Part shown: positions 14,801-54,983 of the stretch, piece after piece | Layout of the letters: the number at the start of each line of letters is the position of its first letter | Position numbering within the stretch: the first letter of the stretch is position 1 | Source: Saccostrea cucullata | Lineage: Eukaryota | Assembly (NCBI RefSeq): GCF_032062105.1 | Contig: NW_026934212.1 | Coordinates: forward strand, 496,001 to 560,000 | Reading direction: 5' to 3' | Length of the DNA: 64,000 nucleotides | The notes under the pieces: generated by a model | What the model was told of the DNA's origin: nothing | The model's database searches: none | What the model saw: the letters and a program-made list of their open reading frames with translations, nothing else | Position numbers and translations under genes: made by a program

Positions 14801-16175
14801 TGGTTGTCTTGAGATACGAGAAGAGTTTGTTGGCTTTAAATATGCAGAGAGTGTGAAAGGTATGGCAGTTTCCAATATCATCATTGGTTTTCTTGCTGAA
14901 TTGAACCTGAATATTCAGAATCTACGAGCTCAGTGCTACGATGGAGCTGCTAACATGTCGGGGAAATACAGTGGCGTCCAGGCCAGGATACTTCAAGTTG
15001 TTCCCGAGGCTTCTTATGTTCACTGCAAAGCACACTCGCTGAATCTTGCATTGATACACAGCAGCAAGGTTATGTGCATTCGAAACATGATGTCAACAGT
15101 GCAGGATGTGGCATTTTGTTTTGATTATTCTGCAAAGCGTTTGAAAGCATTCTCCGACGAACTGGCTGAAAACGATGACGTACAGGAGCAGATGGACCGA
15201 CGAACAAAACTCAGAACACTGTGCGAAACGCGTTGGTCAAGTCGAGCAGATTCACTGTTCACCTTCCGCTCAGCTTTCCCCGTGGTCGTTGCTGCCCTCC
15301 AATCACTTGAAGATGCTAAAGATGAGAAGGCATCGCAATACTTAGCTGCTATTTTGAGATTTGAATTTATCATTGCACTAGTTGTAGCGGAACACGTTTT
15401 GAGCTCTACAGTAGCCTTAACAAACTATCTTCAAAAAAAGGACATAGACCTTTTAGAAGCAGTAACAGAGGCCAAAGTCGTTATCAGGAGATTAACTGAT
15501 GAAAGAAACGACATTAGTGTTTGGGATGCATTGTATGGCAGGGCAACTGAAATAGCTGCAGAGCATGACTTGCAGCCATGCGTTCCAAGAAGAGCAGGAC
15601 GTCAACAACACAGAGAAAATCATCCCCTAAACAACCCGTCGGATTACTGGAGAGTTTCGTTGTATCTCGTCTTTTTAGATCACCTGGTAAACGAAATATC
15701 TAGTCGAGTAACAAAGAACGAAGAGAGATTTTTAATTTCGTATTTGCTACCAGCCAAACTGCAAGACCTTACAGCGGATGTTACAGATCGTCTGTACAAC
15801 GCCTATAAGTCAGACCTCACTAGCAAAGTAGAGTTTGTGGATGAAATAACAAGATGGAGGATTAGATGGAATCTTGCTGGTACCGATACAGGACCGAATA
15901 AAATCATCGATCTCCTGAATAAAACCAACAAAGACATTTATCCTGGCATTTTCTGCGTTCTGTCCATTTTCTTGACCATGCCAGTATCCTCGGCCTCTAG
16001 TGAGCGTTCGTTTAGTGCGATGCGTAGAGTTAAAAATTATTTGAGAACAACTATGGGAGACGAAAGGATGTCCAATCTTTCTCTGTTGCATGTACAACGT
16101 CATATGCCAGTTGACATTGATGCTGTAATTGACAATTTTGTTGCTGTGAAAAACAGAAAAATCAATTTCATTTGA
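11832..16175 (+). CDS. hAT transposase (ZMYM1/PRKRIR-like: TTF zinc finger, DUF4371-type region, hATC dimerisation domain), about 753 aa; exons 11832-12046 and 14129-16175
   Basis: Donor TCAAG|GTTAGT (phase 2) joins in frame to acceptor TTTTACAG|G; motifs FQPSW...VFCAYC, IIADECTD, QCYDGA, HCKAHSLNL, ETRW, SASSERSFS; no stops. Confidence 0.88.
12177..12650. mobile_element. hAT-like MITE nested in the transposase intron
   Basis: TIR CAGGCGCGGATC...GATCCGCGCCTG; flanks AAGAT/AACAT (4 of 5 match). Confidence 0.7.
12882..13219. mobile_element. Second MITE nested in the transposase intron
   Basis: Imperfect TIRs of about 32 bp AGGCCTAAAATAAAATATCGTTTGTTTCCCCTT / AAGGGGAAACAAACAATATTCTAATTTAGGCCT. 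Confidence 0.65.
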
Positions 16176-17345: not shown

Positions 17346-19319
17346 TACGAAAGCCGGATAGGCTCATTTGTGAAAAGATAAAAAAAATATTTAACTCGTT
17401 ATAACGAGTTAATTATCTCGTTATAACGAGTTAGTATCTCGTTATAACGAGTTAGTATCTCGTTATAACGAGTTAATTACCTCGTTATAACGAGATAATT
17501 ATCTCGTTATAACGACTTAGTTTTATCTCGTTATAACGAATTACTTATCTCGTTATAACGAGTTAGTTATCTCGTTATAACGAGTTAATATCTCGTTATA
17601 ACGAGTTAATTAACTCGTTATAACGATTTAGTTATCTCGTTATAACGAGTTAATTAACTCGTTATAACGAGTTAGTTATCTCGTTATAACGAGTTAATTA
17701 TCTCGTTATAACGAATTAATTATCTCGTTATAACGAGTTAATTATCTCGTTATAACGAGTTAGTTATCTCGTTATAACGAGTTAATTATCTCGTTATAAC
17801 GAGTTAGTTATCTCGTTATAACGATTTAATTATCTCGTTATAACGAGTTAGTTATCTCGTTATAACGAGTTAATTAACTCGTAATAACGAGATAATTAAC
17901 TCGTTATAACGAGATAATTAACTCGTTATAACGAGTTAGTTATGAATTAAGAATGGCTGTAGTTTTAATGCCATTGATGTTTAGTTGATAATTATCAGTC
18001 ATACATCACTTCAATATTGATAAAAAGTTGCAATTTTAATTTGCGATATGGTTTAAATAATATTCATCCTGAACTATCTTGCTGTCAATAATCACAATTT
18101 GATAAGTATAGCAATCATTATTTACACATTTATACGTGAACTTCTCCAAGGACACAATATAAAAAGAATCTATTACCAAAAGTACTTGCTTCAAAGTTTG
18201 ACAATTTATTTATGACAACTTTCTCCGATAAAAGACACTAATTTTTCTGATATGTTTGGATGACTTATTAGCTTTCATAACCAATGTCTTAGTACCGAAA
18301 TTAATACATTATAATAGGAAGCTAACGCAGGCGTTAATGCAACATATATCATATACACTTACAGTGTGATATATATATTATTTTGAGAGTCAGAAATGTT
18401 TTGAAGAAGGGGGATATGGAGACATCAGCAATGAGGCCATGGGCGTAAAATTCGAGGGCTACTGCTCACTCATAACACAACATCAAGAGGCAGTCATAAG
18501 TTTCCGTATACATGTATATGTATTTGTCTTCGGTTTTTTAAGTATACAATACAAATCAACTGCATCGTTTATACATAAACAGAATACAATCACAGGCACA
18601 ACCCCTCGAAAAACAAAAAAAAAATAAACTAGTTTGCTGTTTTTCAAGAAAAATCTTTATCATACACACTATAAACAAACTTGATCAACTTGGTTTTATA
18701 TGTTATACTATTATACTTCCTATCACTTAGATATATCAACTTTAGATCAGTTTTTAACTCGTCATAACGAGAAAATTGACTCGTTATAACGAGAAAAATT
18801 AACTCGTTATAACGAGTTAATTTTCTCGTTATAACGAGATAATTAACTCGTTATAACGAGATAACTAACTCGTTATAACGAGATAACTAAGTCGTTATAA
18901 CGAGATACTAATTCGTTATAACGAGATAATTAACTCGTTATAACGAGATAACTAAGTCGTTATAACGAGATAATTAACTCGTTATAACGAGATAATTAAC
19001 TCGTTATAACGAGATAACTAAGTCGTTATAACGAGATACTAACTCGTTATAACGAGATAACTAACTCGTTATAACGAGATAACTAAGTCGTTATAACGAG
19101 ATACTAATTCGTTATAACGAGATAACTAAGTCGTTACAACGAGATAACTAAGTCGTTATAACGAGATATTAACTCGTTATAACGAGATAACTAAGTCGTT
19201 ATAACGAGATACTAACTCGTTATAACGAGATAACTAAGTCGTTATAACGAGATACTAACTCGTTATAACGAGTTAATTTTTTTTTATCTTCTCAGAAATG
19301 AGCCTATCCGGCTTTCGTA
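17346..19319. mobile_element. Non-autonomous IS3EU-like foldback element with two inverted arrays of a 20-22 bp unit (palindromic core CTCGTTATAACGAG)
   Basis: TIR TACGAAAGCCGGATAGGCTCATTT...AAATGAGCCTATCCGGCTTTCGTA; 6-bp TSD ATTTAT within an (ATTT)n tract; arrays at about 17392-17940 and 18757-19277 around an ~820-bp spacer. Confidence 0.85.
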
Positions 19320-21482: not shown

Positions 21483-22110
21483 TAGGTCACCTGAGTCACT
21501 CAGGTGACATATTGCTATCCGTTTTCGTCCGTCGTTGATCGATGTCCGTCGTCCATCGTGTGTTAACATTTGAACATTTTCAACTTCTTCTCTGAAACCA
21601 CTGAAACCAATTTCAACCAAATTTGGTATACAGCATATATGGGTAAAGGGGAACAAAAATTATGAATTTTATGATCCCTGCCCCCCTGGGGCCTGAGGGG
21701 TGGGGCCAAAACCACTAAAATTAATGAAATCTTTAAAAATCTTCTTCTTTACTCCTGGACATCAAGCAGTCAAACTGTTTGCATGATTGTAATCAGCATT
21801 GAGTCTTCTACCAAAATTGTGAAATTCATGACCACAGGGTCAGGGGTTCTTGTGCTAGGGCGGGGCTCTATTGATTATATAGTGAAAATGCATTAAATCT
21901 TTGAAAATCTTCTTCTCTGCTCCTGGGTATTAAATAAACTAATTAAGTACATAGTTATGATGAGCAAGAGTGCCTCTTCCAAAATTGTGAATTTTATGGC
22001 CCCAGGGTCAGGGGTTCTGGTGCTAGGGTGGGGCTCTATTGATTTTTAGTGAAAATGCGTTAAATCTTTGAAAATCTTCTTCTCTGCTCCTAGGTATTAA
22101 ATAAACTAAG
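21483..22110 (+). mobile_element. Helentron/HINE-type non-autonomous element, truncated by the duplication junction
   Basis: 5' AGGTCACCTGAGTCACTCAGGTGAC, (CGTC)n microsatellite, ~165-bp monomers. Confidence 0.75.
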
Positions 22111-22729
22111 TTATAACGAGATAATTAACTCGTTATAACGAGATAACTAACTCGTTATAACGAGATAACTAAGTCGTTATAACGAGATACTAATTCGTTA
22201 TAGCTCGGTATAACGGGATAATTAACTCGTTATAACGAGATAATTAACTCGTTATAACGAGATAACTAAGTCGTTATAACGAGATACTAACTCGTTATAA
22301 CGAGATAACTAAGTCGTTATAACGAGATACTAACTCGTTATAACGAGATAACTAAGTCGTTATAACGAGATACTAATTCGTTATAACGAGATAATTAACT
22401 CGTTATAACGAGATAACTAAGTCGTTATAACGAGATAATTAACTCGTTATAACGAGATAACTAAGTCGTTATAACGAGATACTAACTCGTTATAACGAGA
22501 TAACTAAGTCGTTATAACGAGATACTAACTCGTTATAACGAGTTAATTTTTTTTTATCTTCTCAGAAATGAGCCTATCCGGCTTTCGTAATTTATTTATT
22601 TATTTATTTGAAATTGTTTTATTTGCATCGGGCTCGAAAAACCGTTTTCTGTTGTCTTTTCATCTCGCCATTTCCGATTTGACATCCCTGTGATCATGAG
22701 TTTTCAGAGTTTATACTTGTAGTAACTAG

Positions 22730-24745: not shown

Positions 24746-26348
24746 TAGGTCACCTGAGTCACTCAGGTGACATATTGCTATCCGTTTTCGTCCGTCGTTG
24801 ATCGATGTCCGTCGTCCATCGTGTGTTAACATTTGAACATTTTCAACTTCTTCTCTGAAACCACTGAAACCAATTTCAACCAAATTTGGTATACAGCATA
24901 TATGGGTAAAGGGGAACAAAAATTATGAATTTTATGATCCCTGCCCCCCTGGGGCCTGAGGGGTGGGGCCAAAACCACTAAAATTAATGAAATCTTTAAA
25001 AATCTTCTTCTTTATTCCTGGACATTAAGCAGGCAAACTGTTGGTGTGCATGTAATGAGCATTGAGTCTTCTACCAAAATTGTGAAATTCATGACCACAG
25101 GGTCAGGGGTTCTTGTGCTAGGGCGGGGCTCTATTGATTATATAGTGAAAATGCATTAAATCTTTGAAAATCTTCTTCTCTGCTCCTGGGTATTAAATAA
25201 ACTAATTAAGTACATAGTTATGATGAGCAAGAGTGCCTCTTCCAAAATTGTGAATTTTATGGCCCCAGGGTCAGGGGTTCTGGTGCTAGGGTGGGGCTCT
25301 ATTGATTTTTAGTGAAAATGCGTTAAATCTTTGAAAATCTTCTTCTCTGCTCCTAGGTATTAAATAAACTAAGTAAGTACATAGTTTGATGAGCAAGAGT
25401 TCCTCTTCCAAAATTGTGAATTTTATGGCCCCAGGGTCAGGGGTTCTGGTGCTAGGGTGGGGCTCTATTGATTATATAGTGAAAATGCATTAAATTTGAA
25501 AATCTTCTTCTCTGCTCCTGGGTACTAAATAAACTAAGTACATAGTTATGATGAGCAAGAGTGTCTCTTCCAAAATTGTGAATTTTATGGCCCCAGGGTC
25601 AGGGGTTCTGGTGTTAGCGCGGGGCTCTATTGATTACATAGTGAAAATTTAATTGATTATATAGTGACAATTCAAAATTGTCTTCTCTGCTTCTGTGTAT
25701 TAAGTAAACTAACTTAGTATAAAGTTATAATGCCTCATTCAAATTTGTGAATTTTATGACCCTTGTTTCAGGGTTTGCCATTTGGTGTAAGGGTGGTGGG
25801 GCTCTTTTGATTATATATTGAAAATACATTCATTCTTTGAAAATCGTTTTCTTTGCTCCTGGGTATTATGCTAATGATCCAAGTTTATATATATTTGATG
25901 AAGTAAGGTGCATCTAGCAAAATGGTTAATTTCCTGCCCCCTGGGTCACCGTCAGGGGTATCAAAGGGGGGGGGTACATAGTCTGAAAATAAATTAATGC
26001 TTTGAAATCTGCTCTTTGGTATTAATCAACCATTTATGATGAAATAAAATTTCTGATAAAATTTCCAAACTTTTGAAATATGTGGCCCCAGGGTCAGTGG
26101 TTCCTTCTGGGTGCACAACTGGTTATAAAGTGGAAGTGCATTTTCTCTTTGCTATTCTGGTCTACCTCTTGGTGTTAAGTAAATAGAGTAAGCATGCCTG
26201 CTTAGTTTTATAATTATGATAATCAATGGTGCCTCTCTCCAAATTTTCAGAATTTCATGGCCTCTGGTTTAAAACAAGAACCAAATTCAATTTTTGGAAA
26301 GTTGTTACATGATACTCAGGTGACCTATAAGGCACGTGGGCCTCTTGT
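24746..26348 (+). mobile_element. Complete Helentron/HINE-type element carrying ~165-bp satellite monomers
   Basis: Inserted in a T-run; subterminal IR GGTCACCTGAG/CTCAGGTGACC; 3' hairpin AGGCACGTGGGCCT followed by CTTGTT. Confidence 0.8.
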
Positions 26349-27317: not shown

Positions 27318-30300
27318 ATGGCTCAGTATAAAATTCCTGACCCTGAGGAGATGATTCCCTGCCCCTACGACAAGGTTCACATGATTAGGGCCAAAAGGAT
27401 GCAGTACCATCTGATGAAGTGCAGAAAGGTCAGTGTACTGTCACTCAAGCTTTTGACTGTTATGATAATTCTATAAATTTTATCTTAAAATTGGAATTTT
27501 GAAATTACACTTCTTGGGTTATGCTCTGAATTTTAATAATTTATAGGCATTGCTAGAGATACACTTAAATACAGATTCCATAAATACCTTAGATTCATTC
27601 AACTATTCATATCTATAATTATAAGAATAGGCATTTCCATTAACACTTTATTCAGATGAAAAGCTAAAATTACAAATAGATACCATCTAAAATACTAAAA
27701 TTGAATTTTGTGTTACTATAATAATAAAATTTCAAAATACAGCTTTTGAGAAGGATTTTCAACTCTTGGTTATTTTGTCCCTTCAGAACTATGTTGGAAG
27801 CGACTTTGCCACTTGTCCTTTCAATGCCAGGCATGAGATGCCCAAACCAGAGCTTCGTTATCACTTAGCTAACTGTCCTGACAAGGCTGTCATTGAGCCG
27901 ATGCTGGCCTATGGTAAGTCATTATAATCAAAAAGTCCATAAGCATTGGCGTCGGAATCAAATTAAAAGTGGGGGGGCTAAGTGTAAAAAAAAATTTTTT
28001 TTGTACCTCCAAAAAAACCTGACAAGCAAAAAAAAAAAAAGGAAATGTCTATTTCCCAAACACGAAAATCCTATTTCGTGGGGGGGGGGGGGGGGGGGGT
28101 AAGGTTCAAACTCCAGTACCAAAAATTTCCTACCTATACTAAGACGTATCTGTGGAAAGTGGGGGGGGGGGGGCTAAACTTACGAAGATATGTTCAATGT
28201 CTATACTAAGTACATATTTGAAAAAAAAGTGGGGGGGCTAAGCCCCCCGTAGCCCCCCCGGTTCCGACGCCTATGATAAGTGTGCAAATTTTTATTACTG
28301 TAAATAAGTTTCTGTTGAAATCATTCATTTTATAATCAATTTTGTTCCATTTTGTTAGGAATTTAAAGTGTGACTTGTTTAGTTTTGGGGAAATTTTTGC
28401 TCTGAACAATAATACATTAACCTTTTATGTGAGAATGAAAACTCTGAACAAAAATACATTGACCCTATATACAACAGTGAAAACTAAAAATGTGTTTTCT
28501 ATGAATATAGAGTTCGGTAGCCGTAAAATGTCAGGTTAGGTAAAGTACAACTCTTTTGAAAAAAAAAACCACACTCATAATTTACAATTATATGACCCTA
28601 AATATATATATGTACTTGTTCATATAATGATAAAATTGAAAAATATTTGACTAGAATTTGAAAGTTGAACATCTGTGCTTTGTTTTGACAGAGAGCAGTA
28701 AGAGGAATGGAGAGGCGTCCATGTTTAGAGGCTGTACTGATCTACCTGTCTATGATAATGTTGTAATTAACAGTGAGGAAAACTGGGACGATGGTAAATA
28801 CATATCTAACTTTGACAATTAATTCTATCAGAAATATGTATTGAAAGGGAAAGTCATTCTTAATGGCCATAAATCTCTGCTGCCACTTTTACTTCACCCT
28901 AGCCACAGGGAAGTGAACTACAGCGTCGTGCCATAAGTATTCGCGGAAAAATGGCGGACGTGATTTGAGAGTTATCGCGCTTGCAACATAAAAGTCACCC
29001 AAATACAACAAAAACAAAACAAACGCTTACCTTTAGTACTTTGTTAAATGTCCCTTGGATCGTATACATGCCATGATGCGTTTTGGGATGGATTTATAAA
29101 GGTTTTGAATATATTCTATGGTGAAATTCTGCCAAGTGTGCAAAATAACAGCGAACAGCTGATCAGGGGTGGTAATATCTCCGGCGTGATTTTGGATCTG
29201 TCTTTTAATTCTATGCCAACAATTTTCAATGATATTAATGTCCGGACTCTGGGCAGGCCACACCATACCCCAATATTATTTGCACGCTTATATTCCTCTA
29301 CAACACGGGCTCTATGTACCGGAGCATTGTCGTCTTGAAAAACGTAGTTGTTTGCAGGGAAATGTCGGGCAATAACAGGCCACAGGTGGTTGTCAAGGAT
29401 ATTTATATATTTCTCAGCATTAATATTACCTTGTACCTTGCATAGAGTCCCTGGACCATACCAGCTGATGCATCCCCATATCATTACGGAAACTTTTGGT
29501 TTTGAAATCGCATACATGCACTCCGGACGGTACGATTCCTGGGCGGATCTCCAGACGTACACACGATTATTTTATCCTATAACCACTTGAGATTCATCAC
29601 TAAATATGATAGATTTCCAGTTTTGTTCAACAGTCCATCTTCGTTTGAGTAAACACCATGCTAAACGTTTCTTTCTATTTACTTCTTTGACAACCATTCG
29701 TTTTCTCACTACTCGTCTGTAAATTTTGTTATTATGTAAAATCCGCTTGACTGTCCGTTCACTAATTGGTTCACAATAATTTCCATTATTAAAATCAGTT
29801 GTTATGTCCTTCAAAACACTTCCCCGGTTCTTCCTAACCATACGAAGTAATCTTACTTCACCACGTTTTGACACTTTCCTGGGACGTCCCGAATGAGGAG
29901 CTCTTTCCACACATTTTCGCTGATGAAACGTTTTTAAAATTGATCTACATGTAGATTCGGGAATTTTCATAATTCTTGAGATCTCACTGACTTTTTGTCC
30001 GTTTTCTTTCAAATCTATAATCAGCTGTTTTATCTCTAGTGACAGTTCTTTTGATTTTCTACCCATGTTGTTTACAGTCCGTAATATTCGGCAGTCTAAC
30101 TTTAGCAGACGTCAAACATGACATCACGGTAAACTTTGACCTTACGCGGTTTTGGGGATGATGTCAAAATACAAAAAAGCGATTGCATATTGATTTAGAA
30201 CAATTTGAAAAACGCGAAGCGTGAACGTTTTACGACGGCTGCCATTTTTCCGCGAATACTTTTGGCACGACGCTGTAGGTAGTATTATTGTGGATCCATT

Positions 30301-33300
30301 GAGCAGAAATGACAAAATTATTGTTAATTTTTTTTTTCTTTTTTTTTTTGTAATTTTATAACAAGTGTTTTTTCCACCCCTCCACCCATTATTATGTATC
30401 CATTAGATTTACTAGTATTGCTACAAAAGCTATTAGAGGTCCAAAGAGGCATGTTAAAAAACAAACAATGGTGTCCATTTTGATAATTTTCAAATTCTGA
30501 AAGACCTCATGATAATATTTTGTCAGTGCTATCACCATTTGTAATGTTAAGAAGACTTGCTTTGGAATAAATGTGTCAGCTTTGTGAAATAAAATAAAAA
30601 CATAAAAATATACACTTGTTTTAATTTCTACGTACAAGATTTCTCAATCTTCTTGTTTGTTGTTTTACAGAGATTCCTTCTGTGGCCAGGATCGGGGTGG
30701 ATCCACAATTTTTTGCACGTCAGGACCACATGATTATCCCAGGGTACTGTATATTTAACTTGAATGAGAATTTTTGTTTTAATTTCTACATTGTAAAGTT
30801 AATTAAGGTTTAAGACATATTATATTGATGATTTTTTACTATTTCAGTCTGACAAAATCAGAGAAGAGAGAGTTTGCCAAGCAGATGCACATTCCAGCAG
30901 AGGACAGGAAGTATGTGTTTCCTTATGATTTTCCTCTCTGCTAAAAAAGAAGGGGGTACAGTTGACATTGTTTGTCTGTCTACCTGTTTTCGTGATTATA
31001 TCAAGTTCATAACTTTTCAAGAGGGCAAAAATGGAAACATATCAATCAAAAATAGTTTCAAACCTTGAAAATTTTCATATTAACCTAAATTATTTGTTCA
31101 AGTTCAAGGTTATAGTGAAAAAGTGTACAATTTATTTACTATGTCTTCACAAGAAATTTTGAAACTGGAACTATTAAGATTGCTCCTGATCTGCCCCATG
31201 GTTTGCTATGTAAATGAAGAAAAGTAATACCTGTTCCTGCCATATTTTGATCATGGAGAAATACCTGGTCATTTTCTTAAGAACTTTGTAACAAAAACGC
31301 ATCAAAAGTGCATACTTCATACATGCACAATGTATTTATTGCCAGAAAACATGAACTGACCAAAGGTTATTAACTTAAATTCAAGTTGCAGAAAGAATAC
31401 TTAAAATCTGAATTGTAACCAACAATCTAGTTCTGTTCTCTGATTAAAATTTAATTTCACTTTTATAAGGTCGTTTTCTTGAAATAAGTAAATCTGTTTC
31501 TCAAAATTTGCCAAGCATTTCAATGTAAAACCTCTGTGATACCTTATTTTCCGTGTTCAATAACAGATACTTGGCCCACTACAAGGAGGCAGAGGAGCCC
31601 ATTAAGGATGAACAGCCCAAACTCCGCCTCCCAAAGACTGCAGCTCAGACTTATCTCCCTCACCAAAAGAAGCTCGATCAGCATCCATCGGCAGTGTTTG
31701 CATATTCATTATCCATGGCCGGTGTGGGGCGAGGGCTTCCAGGTATCAATGCTACAGAATGGATCAGTTATTAAAACAAGAACATCTTAAGATTGTAAAT
31801 TGCTAAGGCCTACAATATATTTTAAAGTCAAAACTTGACATTTGATATTGTTATATTGACAGCCAGCAGTCAGAATGGAGTAATGAATGGCTCTCAGAAT
31901 GCCCCACCTGGTATGAGTAGAGGGAGGGGGCGTGGGTCCAGCCCCGCGGTGGGGAGGGGAATCAGCGTGACTGAGATGAACGGTGACGTACCTCGCTCTC
32001 TAGGACGGGGAATGACCTACGGTGAGGTTCCCTCCTCGTCCCAGCAGGAAACCCCAGCAGTGAGACCAGCAGAGCCCCAGACTAACAGCCCGGTGTTTAG
32101 CGTGGGGATCGGCAGGGGATACAAAGTGCCTAATGGTTTGTATGCATTATTGATATTCTAACCCACAGGTTATGAATGTTTTTATAGGGTATAATTGAGG
32201 CCTATTCTCAAAAGGAGGCATTGATAAAAATATTTTTTAAAAATCTTATGTTAGTGTCTTTCACAGTATTTGCTATGTAATTCAAGATTACACTGTATTT
32301 TATCAAAACAAATACATACATAGAGAAGAAAAGAAGTTTGTCTTTGAAATCTCTTACTTCATGATGATGCTTTTCAATTGATGAGGAAGATTTTGATTAA
32401 GTTTCAATGTTCTAATTTAAAACCAACATTTACATAGAATTGTTTTTCCAGGAACAATTTCACCTCCATCCTTTGTGGTTCCTACAGTGCCCCAGCAGAA
32501 GAATAATGGTAAGAAATAACTCTCAGTATTATTATATTTTCATGTTACTCTGTAACTAAATGTAACTGGTTCACATGCATTTAACAATGCATTATGTTAC
32601 CCTTAGTATTAGCAATACACTTGGCAATATGGTTGCAATAAGTAGCACAACAACCTCATCACAAGTTTGTAATTTGCAAATGTAAGGGTTGTAGATTTCT
32701 CGTAACATCAGTTATGGTAAATGAATCAAAGATTGCATCCAATTTAAGAGTTGATTGTAAACAGCAAATGAAAGACAAAAATAATTTGATGTGCAAAAAT
32801 AGTCAAATTTAAGATGATAAAGAAGTGATAGAAAATTTTAAAAGCTTTATTTTGAGTAAAAATGAATGAGGAGTTTGAAATGGGATAAAAGTGTTAACAC
32901 TTATTTGTTGGATAGGAAAGGAAAAGGAATCAGACTTGGAATCAGAAGGCTCGCAGGTGATTGAAGATGTGGACAAGAAGCTCAAAAAGATTGAGAAGAA
33001 GTTGAGACAGATAGAGCTTCTGGAGGACAAGGTGGGGGAAGGATACACCTTGACTAAGGAGGAGGTAGGGGTTTGATATGTTGGCTATGGTTAAGTATAT
33101 CCCCTTTTAAGGAGTGTAGTTGATTTTATATCCATGACGTTATTAAATAGATGAACTACTGCTTTGCAATCTGTGTAAGTTTGTTTTACTATGATGCTAA
33201 ATAATGAATGTGAAACATATCTTGGGTTACATTTCAAGATGTACTGTATATCTGAACATGTATAATAATGTACATGTGTACATACATGAATATATTTTTA

Positions 33301-33429
33301 AACAAATGAATCAATGTTGCTTGTTCATCTTGACTTTTAAATATTTTGCAGACTGCAAAGGTGAACATGAAGGAGAGCCTTACAGCAGAGAGGGAGAATC
33401 TACAGGAGAATGCCAGGTTAAACAAGTAA
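27318..33429 (+). CDS. GTSF1: GTSF1/Asterix-like protein, paralog A (about 402 aa): 2 CHHC zinc fingers, acidic Trp motif, GRG-rich region, C-terminal coiled coil
   Basis: Phase-consistent GT-AG exons 27318-27428, 27787-27913, 28692-28793, 30671-30743, 30848-30910, 31567-31742, 31863-32135, 32452-32508, 32916-33064, 33352-33429; CPYDKVH...YHLMKC and CPFNARH...YHLANC; EENWDDE. Confidence 0.9.
27944..28275. mobile_element. hAT-like MITE with 5-bp TSD in an intron of paralog A
   Basis: TIR CATTGGCGTCGGAA / TTCCGACGCCTATG; ATAAG on both sides. Confidence 0.75.
28921..30275 (-). mobile_element. Full-length Tc1-family transposon (1355 bp) in an intron of paralog A, antisense
   Basis: 35-bp TIRs CAGCGTCGTGCCA(T/A)AAGTATTCGCGGAAAAATGGC with 1 mismatch; TA TSD on both sides. 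Confidence 0.95.
29033..30066 (-). pseudogene. Tc1 DD34E transposase with one nonsense codon (29572-29574) and one 1-bp frameshift (about 29270)
   Basis: HTH N-terminus, [39 protein letters not shown]; D-to-E spacing of 34 after repair. Confidence 0.9.
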
Positions 33430-34670
33430 ATGGATAAATGACTAGCAAGGAGGAGAGGATTGTACTGTACATATAGTAGTTACTCAGGATTGTTCTGTAT
33501 ATATAGCTCTTGGATGTGTTGCAGGAACTTTACATCTTTTATTTTATACCCTTTTATATGACTTGTTTTAAGGGGAGTTTTATTTCTATACCCAATGCTC
33601 AGATATAAATTGTACTGATAATACCAAAGTTTTGTAATTCTTTGTACTTTGTACATTGATGTTTGAGGTTTGTCTGAAGATGTTTAAATAATCTTTAATG
33701 TAGGAACTGATTGGGTTTTCTGTTGTCATTCTTCATTTGTTTATTTTTTTAAGCCTATCTAGTATTGTCATTCTTGTGCTTTGTCCATTTAGCACCATAT
33801 GGTACACAAAATTCTTTTTTGTATAGAAATGCATTGTGACTTTTGCCTACTATGATTTTTCAGGGCATTATGATAGGCATGCTAAGTTAAAAAAAAATTT
33901 CTTGTTGAGTGGCCCAGAGAATTTTTAGGGCACAAATAAAAGTAATATCTACACTTGATACATTTCAAAGAACCAAGATGTTTTGAAGATTGAAGATACA
34001 AAATGAGATCTGACAGTGTACTTTCATGTAACTCATAAAGCAATGTCATCAAAATGTATAGACAATTCAGCTGTTTTACCATTACATATGCTGGTGATGA
34101 TAATAAAATTGTTTTGGAAGTTAACATTTTACACTTAACCAAGATGGTTTTATATACTACCATGTATTTTACAGTACTGATGTATTTTAAAGTGCAAGTA
34201 TTGTTTAACATAAAGGAATGAAGATATTGCTTGTTTCTTTTTCTGCTCATTAAATTGTAACATATAATTTGACAGGGACATGAAAATGTTTCAAGAACAT
34301 GTTGATCATGAAGATCATACATGATAATTTTTGCAGTATGCTTTTTCCTCGTGGTAAAAAAAAATGAAAACATTTTTCCTATAGTAAAGGGGGGGGGTTA
34401 CTACTACATGTATCCTATGAAAGAGTATGATGTAAATAACGCAATATACAATTACATAACATAGATAAACGTGTGTAGTACACATTGAAATTTGAAAAGG
34501 TAAACAAAAATCAAGGTCATTTAGTTCTTTAAAGAAAAGTCTTGAAATCACTGAATATGCAGCAGTAATTTAAACAATGAATTTGCCATTTTAGATCAAT
34601 CGAAATATTCCAACTGTTCATCATGTACTGGATATTGGCAGGCAGCATCAGTGTTAATTCATTCATGCAG

Positions 34671-34940
34671 TCCATTCCCAAGTAACTTGAAGCCCTACCT
34701 AAATCGGAACTTGAATGGATGATGCATCTAGAGATGAACACAACCAGACTTGCTTTGGATGCTGGATCTGATCTACATTTACAAGATTAATGAAGTTAAA
34801 CTTTTGTGAGCAGGTCCTGTCCATTCCCAAATAGCTTGAAGCCCTACCTGGACCAAATTTGCATTGATGAATGATGCATCTAGAGATGAACACTACCAAT
34901 TGCTTTGGATGCTGGATCTGACCTACATTTTCCAGATTAA
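34671..34940. repeat. Two diverged direct copies of a ~120-bp unit (period about 148)
   Basis: TCCATTCCCAA...GAAGCCCTACCT...GATGCATCTAGAGATGAACAC...GCTTTGGATGCTGGATCTGA occurs twice. Confidence 0.7.
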
Positions 34941-35259
34941 TTTCGGTTGATTCCCCAGCTCCCCAGTGTCAATGAAACTAGCCAATATTATATAGTTTCC
35001 CATGATATTCATAATTTGGGTCAAGATCTCAAAAATGAATAACCCCCCTTTCAGAATTTTTTTTTTAACACACGTTTTCTACAAAAAAGCCAAGTTATTT
35101 ATTTTCTTTTTTATCACAGCTGTATCAAAAAGAAAATCCCAAAAGAAGAAAAAATAAATGAACCCATGTTCATGGAAAAAAAATTTAGATCCGTCCATGT
35201 GATAATGCATAAAAATTACGAAACAGTGGCTGGCGTTTGCATTCTATATTTAGAGGTCG

Positions 35260-37484: not shown

Positions 37485-40400
37485 ATGGCGCAGTACAAAG
37501 TGCCAGATCCAGACAAAGATGAAGTCTGCCCTTATGACAAATCACACGTGTTTCCAGCCAAAAGGATGCAGTACCATCTCATGAAGTGCAGAAAGGTCAG
37601 AAAATGTATAATGTACCATGCTCGAGAAAATACAATTTATATCAACATCATGAAAATTAGACATAAATTTTTACTATTTCTACATATGGACAAACGTATA
37701 TTTCAGTATTTCAAAGTCATTATTTCTCCACAACCATGCTGCCAATTTTACCACAAAGTGCAATTGACCTGCTGTACTGATTTTTTACATTTTCTCTTGT
37801 AGAACCATAAGGGAAGTAGCTTTGCCACCTGCCCTTTCAATGCTAGACATGAAATGCCTAAACCGGAGCTGCGCTTTCATCTAGAAATTTGTCCAGACAA
37901 GGCAGTGATTGAACCATTGCTGGCTTATGGTAAATCAATGATGTCCTGTTTTATTTTTATAAATGTATGTTGGATTAAAAACAAAACAACAACATAACAA
38001 CAACAAATCCCACTGATGTTGTAAAGACAAGGTTTATGCAGATCACAGCATCTCTTAAAACTGTTAAAAATGGGAAAAGGACTTACAAATTATAATGGGT
38101 TCACAAAAGGCAGAAATATAGTTCCTAAATCTTTGATATTAAGAGTTGTAGGATAGCAAACTTTTAAGAGACACGATCTTGAGACCAGATGGTAATATGG
38201 TCACAATTACCTACTTTCTGTAATTTTTAAAAAAAACAGTTAAATTAGCCTTTTTAGATGCTAAGAATCATTAAACTTTGTCATTTAGTACATGATTATA
38301 CTTTAGAGCAATAAAATTAGCATGTTCAGAAGTAGGCAATTAACTGTTATGCATTTCATCAGAAGAACAATTCTAGATCCCTAAACCTATAGGTTTTCAA
38401 ATTGAATTCTGGCATTACTGTTTAGTTTGAAAACAAACTAATTTCAAAATGTTAAAACTTATTTGCTAATGAAAAGGTTGAACATTGTGCATTGTTTTTA
38501 CAGAGAACAGTAAGAGAAATGGAGAAGAGGGGTCCATGTTTAGAGGCTGTACCGATCTACCTGTGTATGACGACGTCACAATTAACAGTGAGGAAAACTG
38601 GGATGATGGTAAATCTACACAAGTACCACTTGCAATAATATCTGTAAAAAAGTACTTTAAAAAGAGAGAAATCTTCAGTACTTAAAAATTATATCTCTAT
38701 AATTCTTATAGCTGTCAGTCCAGTAAGATTTGAGTTGAAGTTATATACAAGAACATTCAATTTTAAAAACAAAATGGCATGTAATTTTTAAAATCATGAC
38801 TCGTATGTTTGAGTCATAACAGTTGCAATAGTTGTCCAAAGTTGTATATAGGATTTAGTGTAAGAAGCCAAGGCCTATTTATACACTGATGCATTTTTAT
38901 TTGGATTAAAAAAAAAATTGTTTGGTATATGAAGGTATCGATAATTTGAATTTTCAATAATTAGAAAATTCATATATTGAGATATTGGAGTGCAGTTGTT
39001 AGACTATTTATTTTTTTGTTGTTTAACAGAGATTCCTTCTGTGGCCAGGATTGGGGTGGATCCACAATTTTTTGCGCGTCAGGACCACATGATTATTCCA
39101 GGGTAGTGTATTCTTAAATTGAAAATATACATTTGTTATATGAATATAGTGGTATGTTTGTTCATTGCTGATTTTGAATATTTCAGACTGACTAAATCAG
39201 AGAAGAAAAAGTTTGCAAAACAAATGTATGTTCCTGCAGAAGATAGAAGGTATGTGGTATTAATTGTTGTTGGTTCCTTTATAAGAAACATTATCAATGC
39301 TTTGTCTGAGAATATGGAGTAAATGAAAACAAAAGGCCAGTATAAACATGATTATGAATTTACTTTATAACAGATACTGGACACATAACACGGAAACAGG
39401 ACCGCCATTAAAGGATCATGAGCAGTCCAATCTGCGTCTCCCTAAAACAGCGGCCCAGACTTACGTATCGAATCAGGAGAAGTCGCTTCAGCAGCCATTA
39501 GCAGTGTTTGCATATTCGCTATCTATGACGGGTATAGGAAGAGGAATACCAGGTAACTGTATCTAAGGAAGTATTAAAATAGTTCACAGATAAATTAAAA
39601 TAAATTGTTTTGCAAAATTTTTCATGCTGAAAGAGTTATAAATTTAATGCTAGTTTCATCAAGTTTCTTGTAATTTGCCATTTCTGTACAGATAATGGTA
39701 TGAGAAGAGAAGTGGATAAAAGACTAGGTCGCGGCAGAGGGAGGGGCCGTGGCTCCACCCCTGCGGTGGGGAGGGGGACCACTATTGCTGAAACAAATGG
39801 AAGGATGTCCCAGTCCCATGAAAATGGGTTAACTTTTGACAAGGGTGGTCAATTTTCCGCTGTCCAGACAGGAACCCCAGCAGCTGTTAGATCTGAGGGC
39901 CTGAAAAGCACCCCTGAGTTTAGTGTGGGGATTGGGCGAGGATACAGAGGATCTGATGGTAAGCGTGCAATTTATTTTAGATTTCAAAAAAAGAGTTTTG
40001 TCTTTCCTGAATTATTTTCAAAAACTCAAGGAAGAGGAACTGGAAAATAATGCATTCTGAACTTTTGATTATTTCAGGAACAACGTCATCCCCATTCTCC
40101 TCTGTATTAGATGCAATGCCTCAACAAAACAAGAATGGTAAGAAACTATTATTTAATGATATTCAACACATTATTCTGATGATTGTGGATTGTTCAAAGA
40201 TAGAAGAGGTACATGCCATGAAAAAGTTAATTAAAGCAGTCTGTTTTATAAAACTACAGCACAAGAAGACTTGGACAGTTTGAAGGATTTGGACAAAAAG
40301 CTGAAGAGAATTGAGAAGAAGCTGAGACAGATTGAGCTGCTAGAAGAGAAGATGGAGGAGGGGTATACTCTGACAAAAGAGGAGGTAGGAGCAGGTTGAC

Positions 40401-41168
40401 TTGATTGTACAGTCAAACCTTATTATCGTGAACTTAGTGGGGCAAAGAAAATAACTGAGATATATGTCCAAAGATTTGAGATACCGTATAAGTGGAAATA
40501 GTAGTGAGACGCAAATTTAGCGATTTCTCCATAAAAATTAGTATTTTATTCTTAGCGATAAGTAATTTTAGCAATTATAAAATGCTCACTAAAGAAGCTA
40601 TTACAGAATTTAATAAAATGCAATTAAAATTTAGCGATATTCAATAGTAGCAATCTTAACACCCTCGCTAATGATGCCAAAATTATTTCTCGCTAAGAAT
40701 TCTACTTATACAGTATCTAGGGTAAAATACTGAAAGAATAAGTATTAATTTGGACTTCCATATTATTTCAACAAATCCTTGGCGTTCATGATATTGGTGT
40801 TTAACTGTGCACAGCCCCTTAGTGAAACCATATCTGTATCATGTGTAATGAGAAACAAACTTGTGATTTAGTTTACTGAAAATTGTACGCAAGATAGTGC
40901 AACATACAGTATTCATGCATCTACTATGTACAGTATTTTGTTCATATACCTGACAGTTACATTTTAGTTAAGTACACATTAACTGTACAGTATTCAGATC
41001 ACAAACACACACATTTGGTACTGTATGTACACATATACTCTGTATAAATATTCATTTCTCTGATAAAAATTTTCTGATTTTTTATAGGCTGCAAAAGTTG
41101 GCATGAAGACAACTCTGAGAAATGAGAGAGAAGAGCTGCAACGGAAGAACGTGTCAAGAAAAATTTAA
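37485..41168 (+). CDS. GTSF1: GTSF1/Asterix-like protein, paralog B (about 396 aa), same exon structure as A
   Basis: Exons 37485-37595, 37803-37929, 38504-38608, 39030-39102, 39187-39249, 39374-39552, 39692-39958, 40078-40137, 40260-40384, 41088-41168; all phases match A; CPYDKSH...HLMKC and CPFNARH...HLEIC. Confidence 0.9.
40481..40715. mobile_element. Small MITE in the last intron of B, nested in an older CAGTCAAAC-type MITE (about 40408-40809)
   Basis: TACCGTATAAGTGGAAT / ATTCTACTTATACAGTA inverted ends. Confidence 0.5.
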
Positions 41169-41364: not shown

Positions 41365-43367
41365 TGACCAAACTTGGTACAAAGCATCCTTGGGTGAAGG
41401 GGAATTTAAATTGTTAAAATGAAGGGACATATCCCCTCGCAAGGGGAGATAATCAAGAAAAGACAAAAATAGGGTTGGGTCATTAAAAAATCTTCTTCTC
41501 AAGAACCACTGGGCCAGTAAAGCTGAAACTTATGTGAAAGCATCCTGGGGTAGTGTAGATTCTAAATTGTTCAAATCATGACCCCTGGGGGAAGGGCGGG
41601 GCCACAATGGGGAATCAAAGTTTTATATAGAAATATATAGGAAAAATCTTTGAAAATCTTCTTCTCAAGAACCACTGGGTCAGAAAAGCTGAAACTTATG
41701 TGGAAGCACCCTGGGGTAGTGTAGATACTAAATTGTTCAAATCATGACCCCCGGGGGAAGGGCGGGGCCACAATGGGGTATCAAAGTTTTACATAGAAAT
41801 ATATAGGAAAAATCTTTGAAAATCTTCTTCTCAAGAACCACTGGGCCAGAAAAGCTGAAACTTATGTGGAAGCATCCTGGTATATTGTAGATTCTAAATT
41901 GTTCAAATCATGACCCCCGGGGGAAGGGCGGGGCCACAATGGGGAATCAAAGTTTTATATAGAAATATATAGGAAAAAATCTTTGAAAATCTTCTTCTCA
42001 AGAACCACTGGGCCAGAAAAGCTGAAACTTATGTGGAAGCATCTTGGTATAATGTAGATTCTAAATTGTTCACATCATGACCCCCGGGGGAAGGGCGGGG
42101 CCACAATGGGGAATCAAAGTTTTACATAGAAATATATATTGGAAAAATCTTTGAAAATCTTCTTCTCAAGAACCACTGGGCCAGAAAAGCTGAAACTTAT
42201 GTGGAAGCACCCTGGGGTAGTGTAAATTCTAAATTGTACAAATCATGACCCCCGGGGCAGGGCGGGGCCACAATGGGGAATCAAAGTTTTACATAGAAAT
42301 ATATATTGGAAAAATCGTTGAAAATCTTCTTCTCAAGAACCACTGGGCCAGAAAAGCCGAAACTTATGTGGAAGCATCCTGGTATAATGTAGATTCTAAA
42401 TTGTTCAAATCATGACCCCCGGGAGAAGGGCGGGGCCACAATGGGGAATCAAAGTTTTACATAGAAATATATATTGGAAAAATCATTGAAAATCTTCTTC
42501 TCAAGAACCACTGGGCCAGAAAAGCTATAACTTATGTGGAAGCATCCTGGTATAATGTAGATTCTAAATTGTTAAAATAATGACACCTGGGGGAAGGGTG
42601 GGGCTACAATGGGGAATCAAAGTTTTTTATAGAAATATATAGGAAAAATCTTTGAAAATCTTCTTCTCAAGAACCACTGGGCCAGAAAAGCTGAAACTTA
42701 TGTGGAAGCACGCCTGGGGTAGTGTAGATTCTAAATTGTTCAAATCATGACCCCCGGGGGAAGGGCGGGGCCACAATGGGGTATCAAAGTTTTACATAGA
42801 AATATATAGGAAAAATCTTTGAAAATCTTCTTCTCAAGAACCACTGGGCCAGAAAAGCTGAAACTTATGTGGAAGCATCCTGGTATAATGTAGATTCTAA
42901 ATTGTTCAAATAATGACCCCCGGGCAAAGGGCGGGGCCACAATTTGGAATCAAAGTTTTATATAGAAATATATAGGAAAAAATCTTTGAAAATCTTCTTC
43001 TCAAGAACTACTGGGCCAGAAAAAGTGAAGCTTATATATATAGAAGCATTCTAGGGTAGTGTAAATTCTAAATTATAGGAATCATGACCCCAGGGGGAAG
43101 GCCGGTGCCATTATAGGGAATCAAAGTTTTACATAGAAATATATAGGAAAAATCTTTGAAAATCTTCTTCTCAGGAACCACTGGGCCAAAAAAGCTGAAA
43201 CATATGTGCCCATGGAAGGATCATGGGTTAGTGTAGATTTCAAAATGTCTAAATTATGATCAGTGGGGTAGGGTGGGGATGCATTATGTATAACAAGGGG
43301 GAAATTTGGTAAAGAACAGAATGGTCAAAGCTTCTCAGGTGAGCAATGTGGCCCATGGGCCTCTTGT
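41220..43367 (+). mobile_element. Helentron/HINE-type element with about 11 tandem ~167-bp satellite monomers, about 50 bp after the stop of paralog B
   Basis: AGCTCACCTGAG...CTCAGGTGAGC IR, (CGTC/TGTC)n, monomer anchor AAAATCTTCTTCTCAAGAACCACTGGG, 3' GGCCCATGGGCC-TCTTGT. Confidence 0.88.
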
Positions 43368-50699: not shown

Positions 50700-51286
50700 A
50701 AGGAAAGATGAAATCAGGAAAGATGAAACTTATGGAGAAACATCCTCAGGTAGTGTAGATTCAAATTTGTTAAAATCATGACCCCCGGGGGTAGGGCGGG
50801 GCCAAAATGGCCGACCAAAGTTTTACATAGAAATATATAGGAAAATTCTTTAAAAAATCTTCTCAAGAATGACAAAGCCATAATTCATCATATATATATA
50901 TTCAAGCATGCTCAGGTAGTGTAGATTCAAATTTGTTCAAATCATGACCCCTGGGGGTAGGGCGGGGCCAAAATGGCCAACCAAAGTTTTACATAGAAAT
51001 ATAGGAAAATTCTTTAAAAATCTTCTTCTCAAGAATGACAAAGCCATAATTCATCATATTTATATGGAAGCATGCTCAAGTAGTGTAAATTCAAGTTTGT
51101 TCAAATCATGACCCCCGGGGGTAAGGCGGGGCCAAAATGGCCGACCAAAGTTTTCAAAGATATATATAGGAAAATTCTTTAAAAATCATTTTCTAAAAAT
51201 AGCAAATCCATGATTGGTCATGGGACTACTTTTGGATTTAAACTTTACAATGAAAAAACATTTTCTACTTTTTCCTACCCTTAGTG

Positions 51287-51622: not shown

Positions 51623-54600
51623 CAACAAAGTATCCTTGGGTGAAGGGGATTTGAGTTTGTTCAAATGAAGGGCCACGCCCTCATCCAAGGGGAGATAATT
51701 GGGAATTAATGAAAATTTGGTGGCATGTTTTAAAAATCTTCTTCTCAAGAACCACTGTGCCAGGAAAGATGAAACTTATGGGGAAACATCTTCAGGTAGT
51801 GTAGATTTAAGTTTGTTCAAATCATGACCCCCGGGGGTAGGGCAGGGCCAAAATGGCCGACCAAAGTTTTACATAGAAATATATAGGAAAATTCTTTAAA
51901 AATCTTCTTCTCAAGAATAGCAAAGCCAGAATTGATCATATTTATTTGGAAGCATCCTCAGGTAGTGTAGATTCAAGTTTGTTCAAATCATGACCCCCAG
52001 GGGTAGGGCGGAGCCAAAATGGCTGACCAAAGTTTTACATAGAAATATATAGGAAAATTCTTTAAAAATCTTCTTCTCAAGAATAGCAAAGCCATAATTC
52101 ATCATATTTATATGGAAGCATCCTCAGGTAGTGAAGATTCAAGTTTGTTCAAATCATGACCCCCAGGGGTAAGGCGGGTTCAAAATGGCCGACCAAAGTT
52201 TTACATAGAAATATTTAGGAAACTTCTTTAAACATCTTCTTCTCAAGAATAGCAAAGCCATAATTCATCATATTTATATGGAAGAATTCTCAGGTAGTGT
52301 AGATTCAAGTTTGTTCAAATCATGGCCCCCAGGGGTATGGCGGGGCCAAAATGGCCGACCAAAGTTTTACATAGAAATGTATAGGAAAATTCTTTAAAAA
52401 TCTTCTTCTCAAGAATAGCAAAGCCATGATTGGTCTTGGGACTACTTTTGGATTTAAGCTTTTCAAGTTTAAACCAATTTTCCTTTTTCCTAGCCACAGT
52501 GCTCAGGTGAGCTATGTGGCCCATGGGCCTCTTGTATATTTCTATGACATACCTCTTTTCAGAAAGTTTAATTAAGGTATATAATTAAGTTGTAATTTTG
52601 CTTGTAGAATCATCCCTGTTCAGAGTATGCTAGTTGTCCCTTGAATGCCACCCATGTGGTGCCAAAACCTGAGCTACGGTACCACCTTGAAAACTGCCCA
52701 GATAAACCACGACTGGAACAGGATATCTCCTTTGGTGAGTATGAAAATTACTGAATAGATTTTTAACTCTTTTGGCAGTATTCTTTAAATTCTTAATAAA
52801 AAAAACCTTCTGTTGGTTGAAATGCCATTTTAGAAATGAATTAAGATATGGGTTTTGAATTTTTCCAGGAATTTTCTTAAATACTGTAAATGTTTATTAT
52901 TTTGATGACTTTTGAAGTTAGCATAGATTTGATTTGGAGCATTTCTAAATTTTCTTATTTATGTGAAAATGTGCAAGACATTTAATTGTATTTGATTTTT
53001 GTGCGATCCACCAAAGCTGCTAAATAGAATACACAGCCAAATGTAATATGCTTACAGTATATATATGTCTTTTTGCACAGCATAAAACTTATTAAATGAT
53101 GGGGGTTTAAGGACACCAAAAAAGAAATTCTACCATGCATGGTTTGAACAGAAATTGTGATTCTTTGGAATTATGACCTCATAGAAACAAGTACATTTAC
53201 AATATATATACATGTACTTGCATCATTTCACAGCATTGATTTATTTACCATTACAAATCTGACAGAATAAATAACTAAGTCATGGAAAAATGGAAATATA
53301 TATTCTCCCTGTTTTATTGCTCTTCATTCTAAAATTGTCTGATTTTTAAATCAGAAGCACAGAAGAGGGAAGGAGGCACCCTGTTCACTGGTTGTACAAA
53401 GTTACCCACATACAGCCAGATAGACTTAAAGATTGAAGATGACTGGGATAAAGGTGGATTACTCATACAGTAGAATTTAATGTTACTGTATTCATCAAAA
53501 AAATTCTGAAAAGAAATGAATAATGGATAAGTACGGGTAAATGTAGATGTAAATGTTTTATTTTAAATACTCTGTTTTAATTTAATTTTACTAACATTGT
53601 ACATGTACTACTTTTTTTCTTGCTTCCAGAAATTCCTCTTCTTCCTCGTATTGGGGTGGATCCAAATATTTTTGCCAAAATGGAAGGAATTCAACTACAA
53701 GGGTAAGTGTTGTGTATACACCATTATGAAATTTAAATTTGCCTGATTTCATTGTAAAAATTTTTAGCAGAGATTATTTTTTTTTCTCAAATTTCTAAAC
53801 TAGGCTTACAACAGCAGAGAAGAAACACATGAAGGCACAGTATGCTCTGCCACAAGAGGAAAGAAGGTACGTATACATATATGTGCAAAGTAAAATTAAA
53901 GTGGATATTGTAGCAATTTTTTAAACCATCTCAATACTGTATTCTGGGAATTTTTTGCTCAATCTTATTTTCGCGGCTTCCGTCCTAAACATATAGATTG
54001 GCAAATTTAAAACTGGGCAAATTCAACAAACGCAGAATAATTTTTAAAAAAGAAATGTGACGTGGCGAATTTAAAACGGGTAATGTTGTTTGAAAGTACA
54101 TAAGGTCATAAATATCACTGGACAAAAATAACCCGTATACGGTACTTATAAAGATAAAGTTGTTTTCTGATTGTCACCAGTAATGGTTGTTATTTTAGGT
54201 ACTTTAAGAATCCAGATAAACCAGAGGAGAAGCCAGTAGCAGGTGCCCCAAAACAGGAGGAGGAGGAGGAAGAAGAACTGAGGATTCCTAACAAAGCCCC
54301 CCAGACCTACGTCCCTAAACCCCAGTCAACCAAACAGCAGCCCCACACTGTGTTCGCCTTCTCCTTATCCTCTACAGGAGTTGGCAGGGGTCAGACAGCA
54401 TCAACGGGGGAACAGCCCTCCATGGAGGGGCAGGGGGTGGGGATGGGAAGAGGAATGGCAGGTGTGGGTCGGGGGATCACAGGGGTGGGCAGAGGAAGGG
54501 CGGAGTCAGTCTGGCTTGGCAGTGAAAAGGTGGACAATTCTTTGAACTTGATTGGGAGAGGACAGAGTATTAGAGGGGGTCATGTGATGAGGGGTAGTGC

Positions 54601-54983
54601 AGGAGGGGGTCAGGTGATGACAGGTAGTGTGGGAAGGTTGATGATGGCAGGGACTGGACGAGGTATTTCCGTGGACAAGCTAGATAAACAAGGTACATTG
54701 GATTATGTTTGTTAAGCTGAGCTTTGTCTTCATTTACATTATGGTACTGCAGTGCCGAATTTGCCCTTCTATTCAGGAAAAAAATAATAAAACTGGAACA
54801 ATATATAAATGTTGAAGATCATACAGTAAATGAAAATGATTAATATTTAAAAATAATCTAAATTTTATTTGTGGGGATTCCATGTATAAGGGGAGAATTG
54901 AATTGAAAACAGTAAGGAGCTTGCTTAAAGCAACTAGTGTGGGAATTAATTATTAGTATGTTTTATTTACCATTTCAGATTGA
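50389..54983 (+). CDS. GTSF1: GTSF1/Asterix-like protein, paralog C (about 323 aa): altered first zinc finger, GRG-repeat tail, no coiled coil
   Basis: Exons 50389-50499, 52608-52734, 53355-53453, 53630-53702, 53804-53866, 54199-54692, 54979-54983 (last exon less certain; the unspliced frame stops at 54715); CPYNKCE...HLIRC and CPLNATH...HLENC; EDDWDKE. Confidence 0.85.
50515..51320 (+). mobile_element. Helentron/HINE-type satellite-carrying element in an intron of C
   Basis: Same termini and ~166-bp monomers as 41220-43367. Confidence 0.85.
51470..52535 (+). mobile_element. Second Helentron/HINE-type element in the same intron of C
   Basis: Same termini, microsatellite and monomers. Confidence 0.85.
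53935..54144. mobile_element. Small MITE in an intron of C
   Basis: TACTGTATTCTGGG / ACCCGTATACGGTA inverted ends. Confidence 0.45.

Follow-up and report, generated by a model that had tools for sequence, protein, structure and literature searches.

Long-form GTSF1 paralogs of the oyster Saccostrea cucullata carry an arm of dispersed GRG units and, in two of three genes, a C-terminal hairpin resembling that of eIF2A and PYM

The stretch of DNA analyzed here (hereafter the window; 64,000 nucleotides of the Saccostrea cucullata genome) contains three tandem, spliced GTSF1 paralogs, designated A, B, and C, all on the plus strand. Gene models with GT-AG introns were built by coordinates, and each yields an intact protein; the predicted masses of these long-form oyster GTSF1s are 36-45 kDa.

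27318..33429, plus strand: GTSF1 paralog A, 10 coding exons, 402 aa, about 45 kDa (GT-AG model)
27318-27428, 27787-27913, 28692-28793, 30671-30743, 30848-30910, 31567-31742, 31863-32135, 32452-32508, 32916-33064, 33352-33429, plus strand: coding exons of A
37485..41168, plus strand: GTSF1 paralog B, 10 coding exons, 396 aa
50389..54983, plus strand: GTSF1 paralog C, 7 coding exons, 323 aa, hairpin absent

The models of B and C are identical to deposited S. cucullata proteins (P0012 and P0046, the latter deposited as 'protein D7-like'), and that of A is 99% identical to the deposited P0002. Splicing was assessed with contigs assembled from four runs of a related oyster (X1, X2, X9, and X12; X1 is recorded as RNA and the others are guessed to be RNA), which report on splicing only and on neither tissue nor level. 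All nine coding introns of A are bridged in X1 and X9, and eight of the nine in X2. For the tail introns of B, bridging contigs come from X2, X9, and X12, with only X9 and X12 spanning the final one; introns 2-4 of C are bridged in X2 and X9, and its GRG exon is partly covered, with the flanking joints not seen. The contig joints rule out the GRG regions of A and B as an unspliced or out-of-frame artefact. In a tree of 65 chosen rows, A and B fall in a single oyster clade (98/90) and C in a separate clade (100/98) with copies from Ostrea, Magallana, and Crassostrea that carry five GRG units and likewise have no hairpin; the split between A/B and C is therefore older than these genera. Because the deep forks are open and long branches join, the tree is read for the oyster paralog groups only.

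The N-terminal 150 residues match mouse GTSF1 (PDB 6x46, E 8e-24), and the core also matches the GTSF1 chain of the SIWI-GTSF1-Maelstrom structure 9nhb (E 8e-19, residues 7-151), with the ENWD motif included. These two matches bear out the first-pass annotation of all three proteins as GTSF1. The CHHC family PF05253 scores above cut-off in both finger exons of A and of C, and twice in B.

27318..27913, plus strand: the two CHHC zinc fingers of A, exons 1-2 (Pfam PF05253, E 1.1e-11 and 2.2e-10)
28784..28792, plus strand: W111-D112-D113 of the ENWD motif of A (PIWI/Tudor-binding aromatic motif), aligning with the ENWD of 9nhb_E

The PIWI-binding tryptophan motif is intact in each paralog (ENWD W111 in A, ENWD W112 in B, DDWD W110 in C), and the earlier suggestion that these proteins may dock on Tudor scaffolds or enter nuage independently of PIWI finds no support.

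Elsewhere in the genome, 26 of 32 CHHC matches lie outside the window, in dispersed, intronless, short GTSF1-like copies, for which 20 stretches were read (L001-L020; G000 contigs C17586, C17750, C10223, C9490, C21757, C9895, C11866, C11786, C18820, and others). These copies have two fingers and a sometimes repeated ENWD, and many are broken by stops or frameshifts; their finger-bearing frames contain no GRG. Retrocopying could account for them, as could carriage by mobile DNA, and they are possibly PIWI decoys. On one contig, C9490, further frames adjoin two such copies:

L007:6005-6924, minus strand: frame adjoining a short GTSF1-like copy
L008:2960-4871, plus strand: frame adjoining a short GTSF1-like copy
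L008:7224-7690, plus strand: frame adjoining a short GTSF1-like copy

We take these frames to resemble polymerase and capsid-type genes of Polinton/Maverick elements; Pfam gave no confirming match among the frames scanned, and one CCHC knuckle.

In the window, a Tc1/mariner-type DNA transposon with 44-bp terminal inverted repeats occupies part of intron 3 of A (28918-30278), its transposase lying on the minus strand and interrupted by a stop, and a hAT-family transposase (DUF4371 and a hAT dimerisation domain) is encoded by an open frame of 690 codons at 14103-16175 on the plus strand. An open frame of 1093 codons (3900-7181, minus strand), mostly of low complexity and without a Pfam match, is probably a long exon of some gene. 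Satellite-like arrays with 164-168 bp units (41487-43208, 50737-51215, 51782-52431, 25055-25648, and 21807-22109) are a source of false positives in motif scans, because some of their frames read GRG by chance; minisatellite arrays of 22 bp lie at 17391-17943, 18755-19276, and 22110-22546. In the A-B spacer, a duplicated 150-bp unit (34670-34941) has very high contig depth in all four runs, and is therefore a highly repeated or highly transcribed element.

Six-frame translation places the GRG motifs of the three genes on the plus strand, downstream of the three CHHC finger pairs, and every motif that had been listed for A, B, and C in the first-pass annotation lies in the coding frame of the spliced models.

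31721-31735, plus strand: first GRG unit of A (GVGRG), closing a conserved 13-letter motif
31916-31936, plus strand: SRGRGRG of A, in a predicted disordered region
31946-31960, plus strand: AVGRG of A, in the same region
32000-32011, plus strand: LGRG of A, in the same region
32105-32119, plus strand: last GRG unit of A (GIGRG, in FSVGIGRG)
39531..39942, plus strand: seven GRG units of B, exons 6-7 (GIGRG 39531-39545, GRGRGRGRG 39727-39753, AVGRG 39763-39777, GIGRG 39928-39942)
54377..54664, plus strand: six GRG units of C, in a single long exon (GRG at 54383, 54446, 54467, 54488, 54554, and 54656)

The counts of 6, 7, and 6 in A, B, and C compare with shuffle means of 0.09, 0.21, and 0.35, and were reached in none of 1000 shuffles per tail. 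In A, the GRG region (residues 211-306) is predicted to be disordered, with pLDDT under 50. The description of these regions as tails holds for C, where the units lie in a true C-terminal tail; the region sits inside the protein in A and B, followed by roughly 100 further residues that include a folded hairpin. Neither the GRG region nor the hairpin of A and B matches a Pfam family above cut-off.

The motifs are kept while the spacers diverge, as had been noted: identity between A and B is 81% in motifs (27 codons) and 47% in spacers (146), and between A and C 74% and 25%, in alignments partly anchored on the GRG motifs themselves. Between A and B, motif codons have pS 0.59 and pN 0.13, and spacers pS 0.56 and pN 0.32; conservation therefore acts on the protein motif. 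An origin of the motifs as a DNA repeat is ruled out, since the Gly and Arg codons of homologous units differ between units and Tandem Repeats Finder reports no array over them; it does report a 30-bp duplication in C, between two GRG units (54573-54629). Individual units are dispensable: P0002 reads LGWG at the fifth unit of A, where A has LGRG, and the S. echinata orthologues carry a variant GRGHG unit.

The GRG motif is real, and more general than the first-pass annotation supposed: it is found across the family. From 232 database proteins and the three models, 221 were kept after removal of 7 rows by name (five fused or multi-copy, and two that duplicate B and C) and of 7 others that did not pass the core profile; reduction at 70% identity left 181 representatives, 136 of which are long-tailed (a tail of 100 residues or more). 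At least one GRG is present in 129 of the 136, and at least three in 93, as against 3 of the 45 short-tailed representatives, some of which are fragments. The long tails hold 459 GRG where shuffling gives 20.2 (maximum 34), a 23-fold excess, while GKG (10 against 12.3 shuffled) and RGG (29 against 19.9) show no such excess; it is therefore the arginine and both glycines that matter, and not charge. Almost none of the core arginines lie in GRG (3 of 1078), compared with 459 of 1989 in the tails, and G precedes 459 of the 575 RG dipeptides. Because the search query itself contained the GRG motif, a control was run on the 30 of the 136 proteins whose profile match ends before the tail; 27 of these have GRG, with 78 occurrences against 4.9 shuffled. 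The family consensus is G-(hydrophobic or R)-G-R-G, with a hydrophobic residue at -1 in 54% of units (background 20%) and G or S at -2 in 71%.

Carriers that can be named include bivalves, gastropods, a chiton, and a cuttlefish among molluscs, and an annelid, a brachiopod, nemerteans, echinoderms, hemichordates, amphioxus, Nematostella, and the sponge Oopsacas, which has one GRG. The number per homologue ranges from 1 to 9; named vertebrate GTSF1 copies have 0-2, one Crassostrea copy retains a single unit, and the two tunicates among the hits have none. The hits included no named protein from arthropods or nematodes, and the short size of theirs is taken from the literature. Nematostella GTSF1/D7 (P0101) has a double-stranded RNA-binding domain (PF00035) where the hairpin would otherwise be, and its C-terminus carries two GRG.

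Close relatives differ by gains and losses of units, which would suit neutral low-complexity sequence or some other, housekeeping function, for example as an import signal of transportin type; RG regions can reportedly bind transportin-1. Neutrality is ruled out by the 23-fold excess over shuffles in many phyla and by the synonymous-biased change between A and B, and we judge this whole class of explanation very improbable. It is also conceivable that the units act unmethylated, as arginine stickers for weak RNA binding and partition into condensates, with methylation merely tuning them. A preference for arginine over lysine is expected for cation-pi and RNA contacts in RG regions, and the family tails show that preference; the GRG region is also predicted to be disordered in A. 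GTSF1 is, moreover, described as an RNA-binding protein (PMC9539491). However, RGG, the usual RNA-binding form, is barely enriched, and the units are few, widely spaced (260 of 459 stand alone), and set in a fixed context at -1 and -2, like a recognised motif; a sticker role thus appears unlikely.

A recognised motif need not be a methylated one. The first GRG unit closes a longer 13-letter motif that bivalves, a gastropod, and an annelid retain, and amphioxus has one like it; hydrophobic-GRG could accordingly be a short linear motif bound unmethylated by a folded partner, methylation switching the binding off. The candidate partners would be a Tudor domain without an aromatic cage, as in Krimper-Ago3, or PIWI itself, and sDMA-independent Tudor binding is documented in the pathway by two reports: the Krimper Tudor binds unmethylated Ago3 (PMC12138184), and silkworm Gtsf1L binds the Vreteno eTudor through W99/D100, outside the aromatic cage, in a contact that survives cage loss (PMC10711660). 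Beyond the first unit, most have just the core tripeptide in common, and their number varies between 1 and 9; this pattern suits a modification site better than a single docking surface, and we consider the linear-motif explanation quite unlikely.

The reading that we somewhat favor is that PRMT5 methylates the GRG arm and multi-Tudor scaffolds then recognize it, an arrangement that would keep GTSF1 next to PIWI in germ granules. Because GRG is the PRMT5 consensus, both methylation of the arm and its docking on Tudor domains are plausible. The first-pass annotation had named the GRG arginines as PRMT5 sites of the kind that Tudor domains read on PIWI, and the literature agrees on both counts: PRMT5 is reported to have GRG as its canonical motif and to methylate it in vitro with no adaptor present (PMC11847536), and PIWI N-termini are modified by PRMT5 for Tudor binding (PMC9385479). 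In the oyster genome we find a PRMT5 gene, large multi-Tudor genes, and 46 Tudor matches, of which a single contig accounts for 13. The genome also has a PIWI-clade gene (G000 contig C22775) whose best PDB matches are to PIWIL2 (E 5e-21), and whose DNA-based model has six dispersed GRG units (GFGRG, PMGRG, SMGRG, and GGRGI among them) in four putative N-terminal exons bounded by GT-AG:

L032:1007-2089 (G000:C22775): N-terminus of the oyster PIWIL2-like protein, several GRG units followed by short leucine-rich stretches

In its dispersed, hydrophobic-flanked GRG units, the oyster GTSF1 arm resembles, as far as sequence can tell, the PIWIL2 N-terminus of the same genome. Hemichordate GTSF1 tails have a GRG-plus-hydrophobic run resembling that N-terminus. 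In a second Piwi-domain gene the start is a compact GRGRARARGRAR. The two Piwi-domain loci examined first, presumably AGO-clade genes judging by eye from their features, show no GRG arm in the stretches read.

As we would picture it, the zinc-finger and tryptophan core would bind and activate piRNA-loaded PIWI, as the family is known to do; the disordered arm, with its six to seven GRG units, would be symmetrically dimethylated by PRMT5 and then read by multi-Tudor scaffold proteins; and this docking would locally concentrate the activator at sites of target RNA slicing. Two published observations bear on the picture. GTSF1 speeds PIWI cleavage, sponge included, and mouse GTSF1 activates PIWI (PMC9385479) though named vertebrate copies have 0-2 GRG, which counts against the GRG-arm explanation. 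GRG is also not needed for Tudor docking, because the one GTSF-Tudor contact that we found published uses the WD motif (PMC10711660). In that silkworm system GTSF is docked on a Tudor scaffold in nuage-like granules, and the WD is present in all three oyster proteins; the silkworm contact, however, is a hydrophobic pocket without methyl-arginine, so that a GRG/sDMA route in the oyster would be a second interface. With the arms of PIWI (RG/RA) and the GRG tail of SmD1, both PRMT5 substrates, the oyster arm has in common a GRG consensus in disordered sequence; it differs from the PIWI arms in being on a cofactor and C-terminal to the folded core, and in being known here from sequence.

The first-pass annotation was right about the GRG units of A and B, and overlooked both their wide phylogenetic spread and what follows them, a predicted helix-turn-helix of about 50 residues:

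32963..33408, plus strand: helical hairpin of eIF2A/PYM type in A, aa 344-396, split by intron 33065-33351, pLDDT 76-92
40286..41141, plus strand: eIF2A/PYM-type hairpin in B, aa 338-388, split by intron 40385-41087, 56 bits to the hairpin profile

The hairpins of A and B are 74% identical (pS 0.8, pN 0.15), and that of A is near neutral in charge (12 K/R and 14 D/E); by profile score, paralog C has none. Searched against the PDB, a profile of 15 hairpins had as its sole significant match the last 50 residues of human eIF2A (552-601; E 2.6e-6, composition bias 18.9). In a protein search, three fly PYM proteins were among five non-GTSF1 matches, and hhalign gave 95% probability for the profile against PYM; the PYM score of 32 bits compares with at most 17 in 4000 shuffles and at most 3.5 for reversed sequences. 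A Magallana homologue (P0050) has been named eIF2A automatically. By these profile comparisons, the hairpin of A and B is homologous in sequence to the eIF2A/PYM C-terminus, sharing its pattern of conserved positions. PYM and eIF2A C-termini have themselves been described as alike (PMC4072592 and PMC12221301).

At least 20 bits are reached in 57 of the 181 representatives, some of which trained the profile. A profile made from molluscs and one annelid only scores amphioxus at 34-35, hemichordates at 39-50, Ciona at 17, and Oopsacas at 16; by sequence score, we regard the hairpin as secure in bilaterians as a whole, with a weaker case for the sponge. It occurs with zero GRG in two C. virginica copies and in Ciona. 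Structure searches with the hairpin placed Caprin-2 HR1 first (Z 8.3, rmsd 1.8, 63 residues), tied with unrelated hairpins; the Caprin-2 HR1 structure has been described (PMC11480233), and the searches do not tell its N-lobe hairpin apart from generic ones. An ESM Atlas search with B residues 330-396 returned unnamed clusters only, at 0.78-0.81, which is chance level, and a homodimer prediction gave no answer (score 0.00). The genome search with the hairpin exon of A, which recovered A, B, and one chance match only, is insensitive, because eIF2A and PYM were not recovered.

The hairpin could thus be a second, separable module of A and B, possibly binding the 40S subunit or RNA as that of human PYM does; this is the weakest step of the mechanism. 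Human PYM binds 40S, and Drosophila PYM keeps an eIF2A-like C-terminus without ribosome binding (PMC4072592). Homology alone does not, therefore, show 40S tethering by the hairpin; 40S association is known for human PYM only, and in A and B the domain is fused to a piRNA cofactor. On the sequence evidence, the long-form design likely anchors the protein in germ granules, and it might also connect GTSF1 with the ribosome.

With the GTSF1/Asterix/D7 family (6x46; 9nhb and 9nhc, SIWI-piRNA-target-GTSF1-Maelstrom), the oyster proteins share the two CHHC fingers, ENWD, and the next helix (residues 7-151), along with the habit of multiple paralogs per genome, but they are larger (36-45 kDa) and have the extra GRG arm and, in A and B, the extra hairpin. 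The review PMC9539491 places 'all' GTSF1 homologues under 20 kDa, and its available text mentions neither arginine, Tudor, nor mollusc; PMC13650160 gives a typical 20-30 kDa, and arginine goes without mention in the portion available. Among the matches listed in our literature search, no description of a GTSF1 GRG arm or an eIF2A/PYM-type hairpin was found, and titles and abstract openings contained no report of GTSF1 arginine methylation. The oyster long forms thus belong to a known family in a new architecture, with two modules that we did not find described and a mechanism that we infer.

A bolder proposal, to which we give little credence, is that the ancestral animal GTSF1 had three modules, namely a PIWI-activating core, a PIWI-mimicking GRG arm for Tudor docking, and an eIF2A/PYM hairpin tying it to 40S, and thereby coupled slicing guided by piRNAs to mRNAs in translation. 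Both outer modules would then have been lost from the standard laboratory animals, and the oyster paralogs with the hairpin (A and B) and without it (C) would be ribosome-linked and granule-only forms.

GTSF1 is a co-activator that makes PIWI slicing efficient, and the mechanistic papers that we consulted concern almost wholly the short vertebrate, insect, and nematode forms. Long forms with the GRG arm, often with the hairpin too, are found in molluscs, annelids, brachiopods, nemerteans, echinoderms, hemichordates, amphioxus, a cnidarian, and a sponge, and the oyster cluster includes natural variants of both kinds, hairpin-bearing and hairpin-less. Should the arm prove to be methylated, GTSF1 would join PIWI as a direct Tudor client, and its delivery to granules could be separately regulated; if the hairpin binds 40S, piRNA slicing would have a concrete connection to translation that can be tested.
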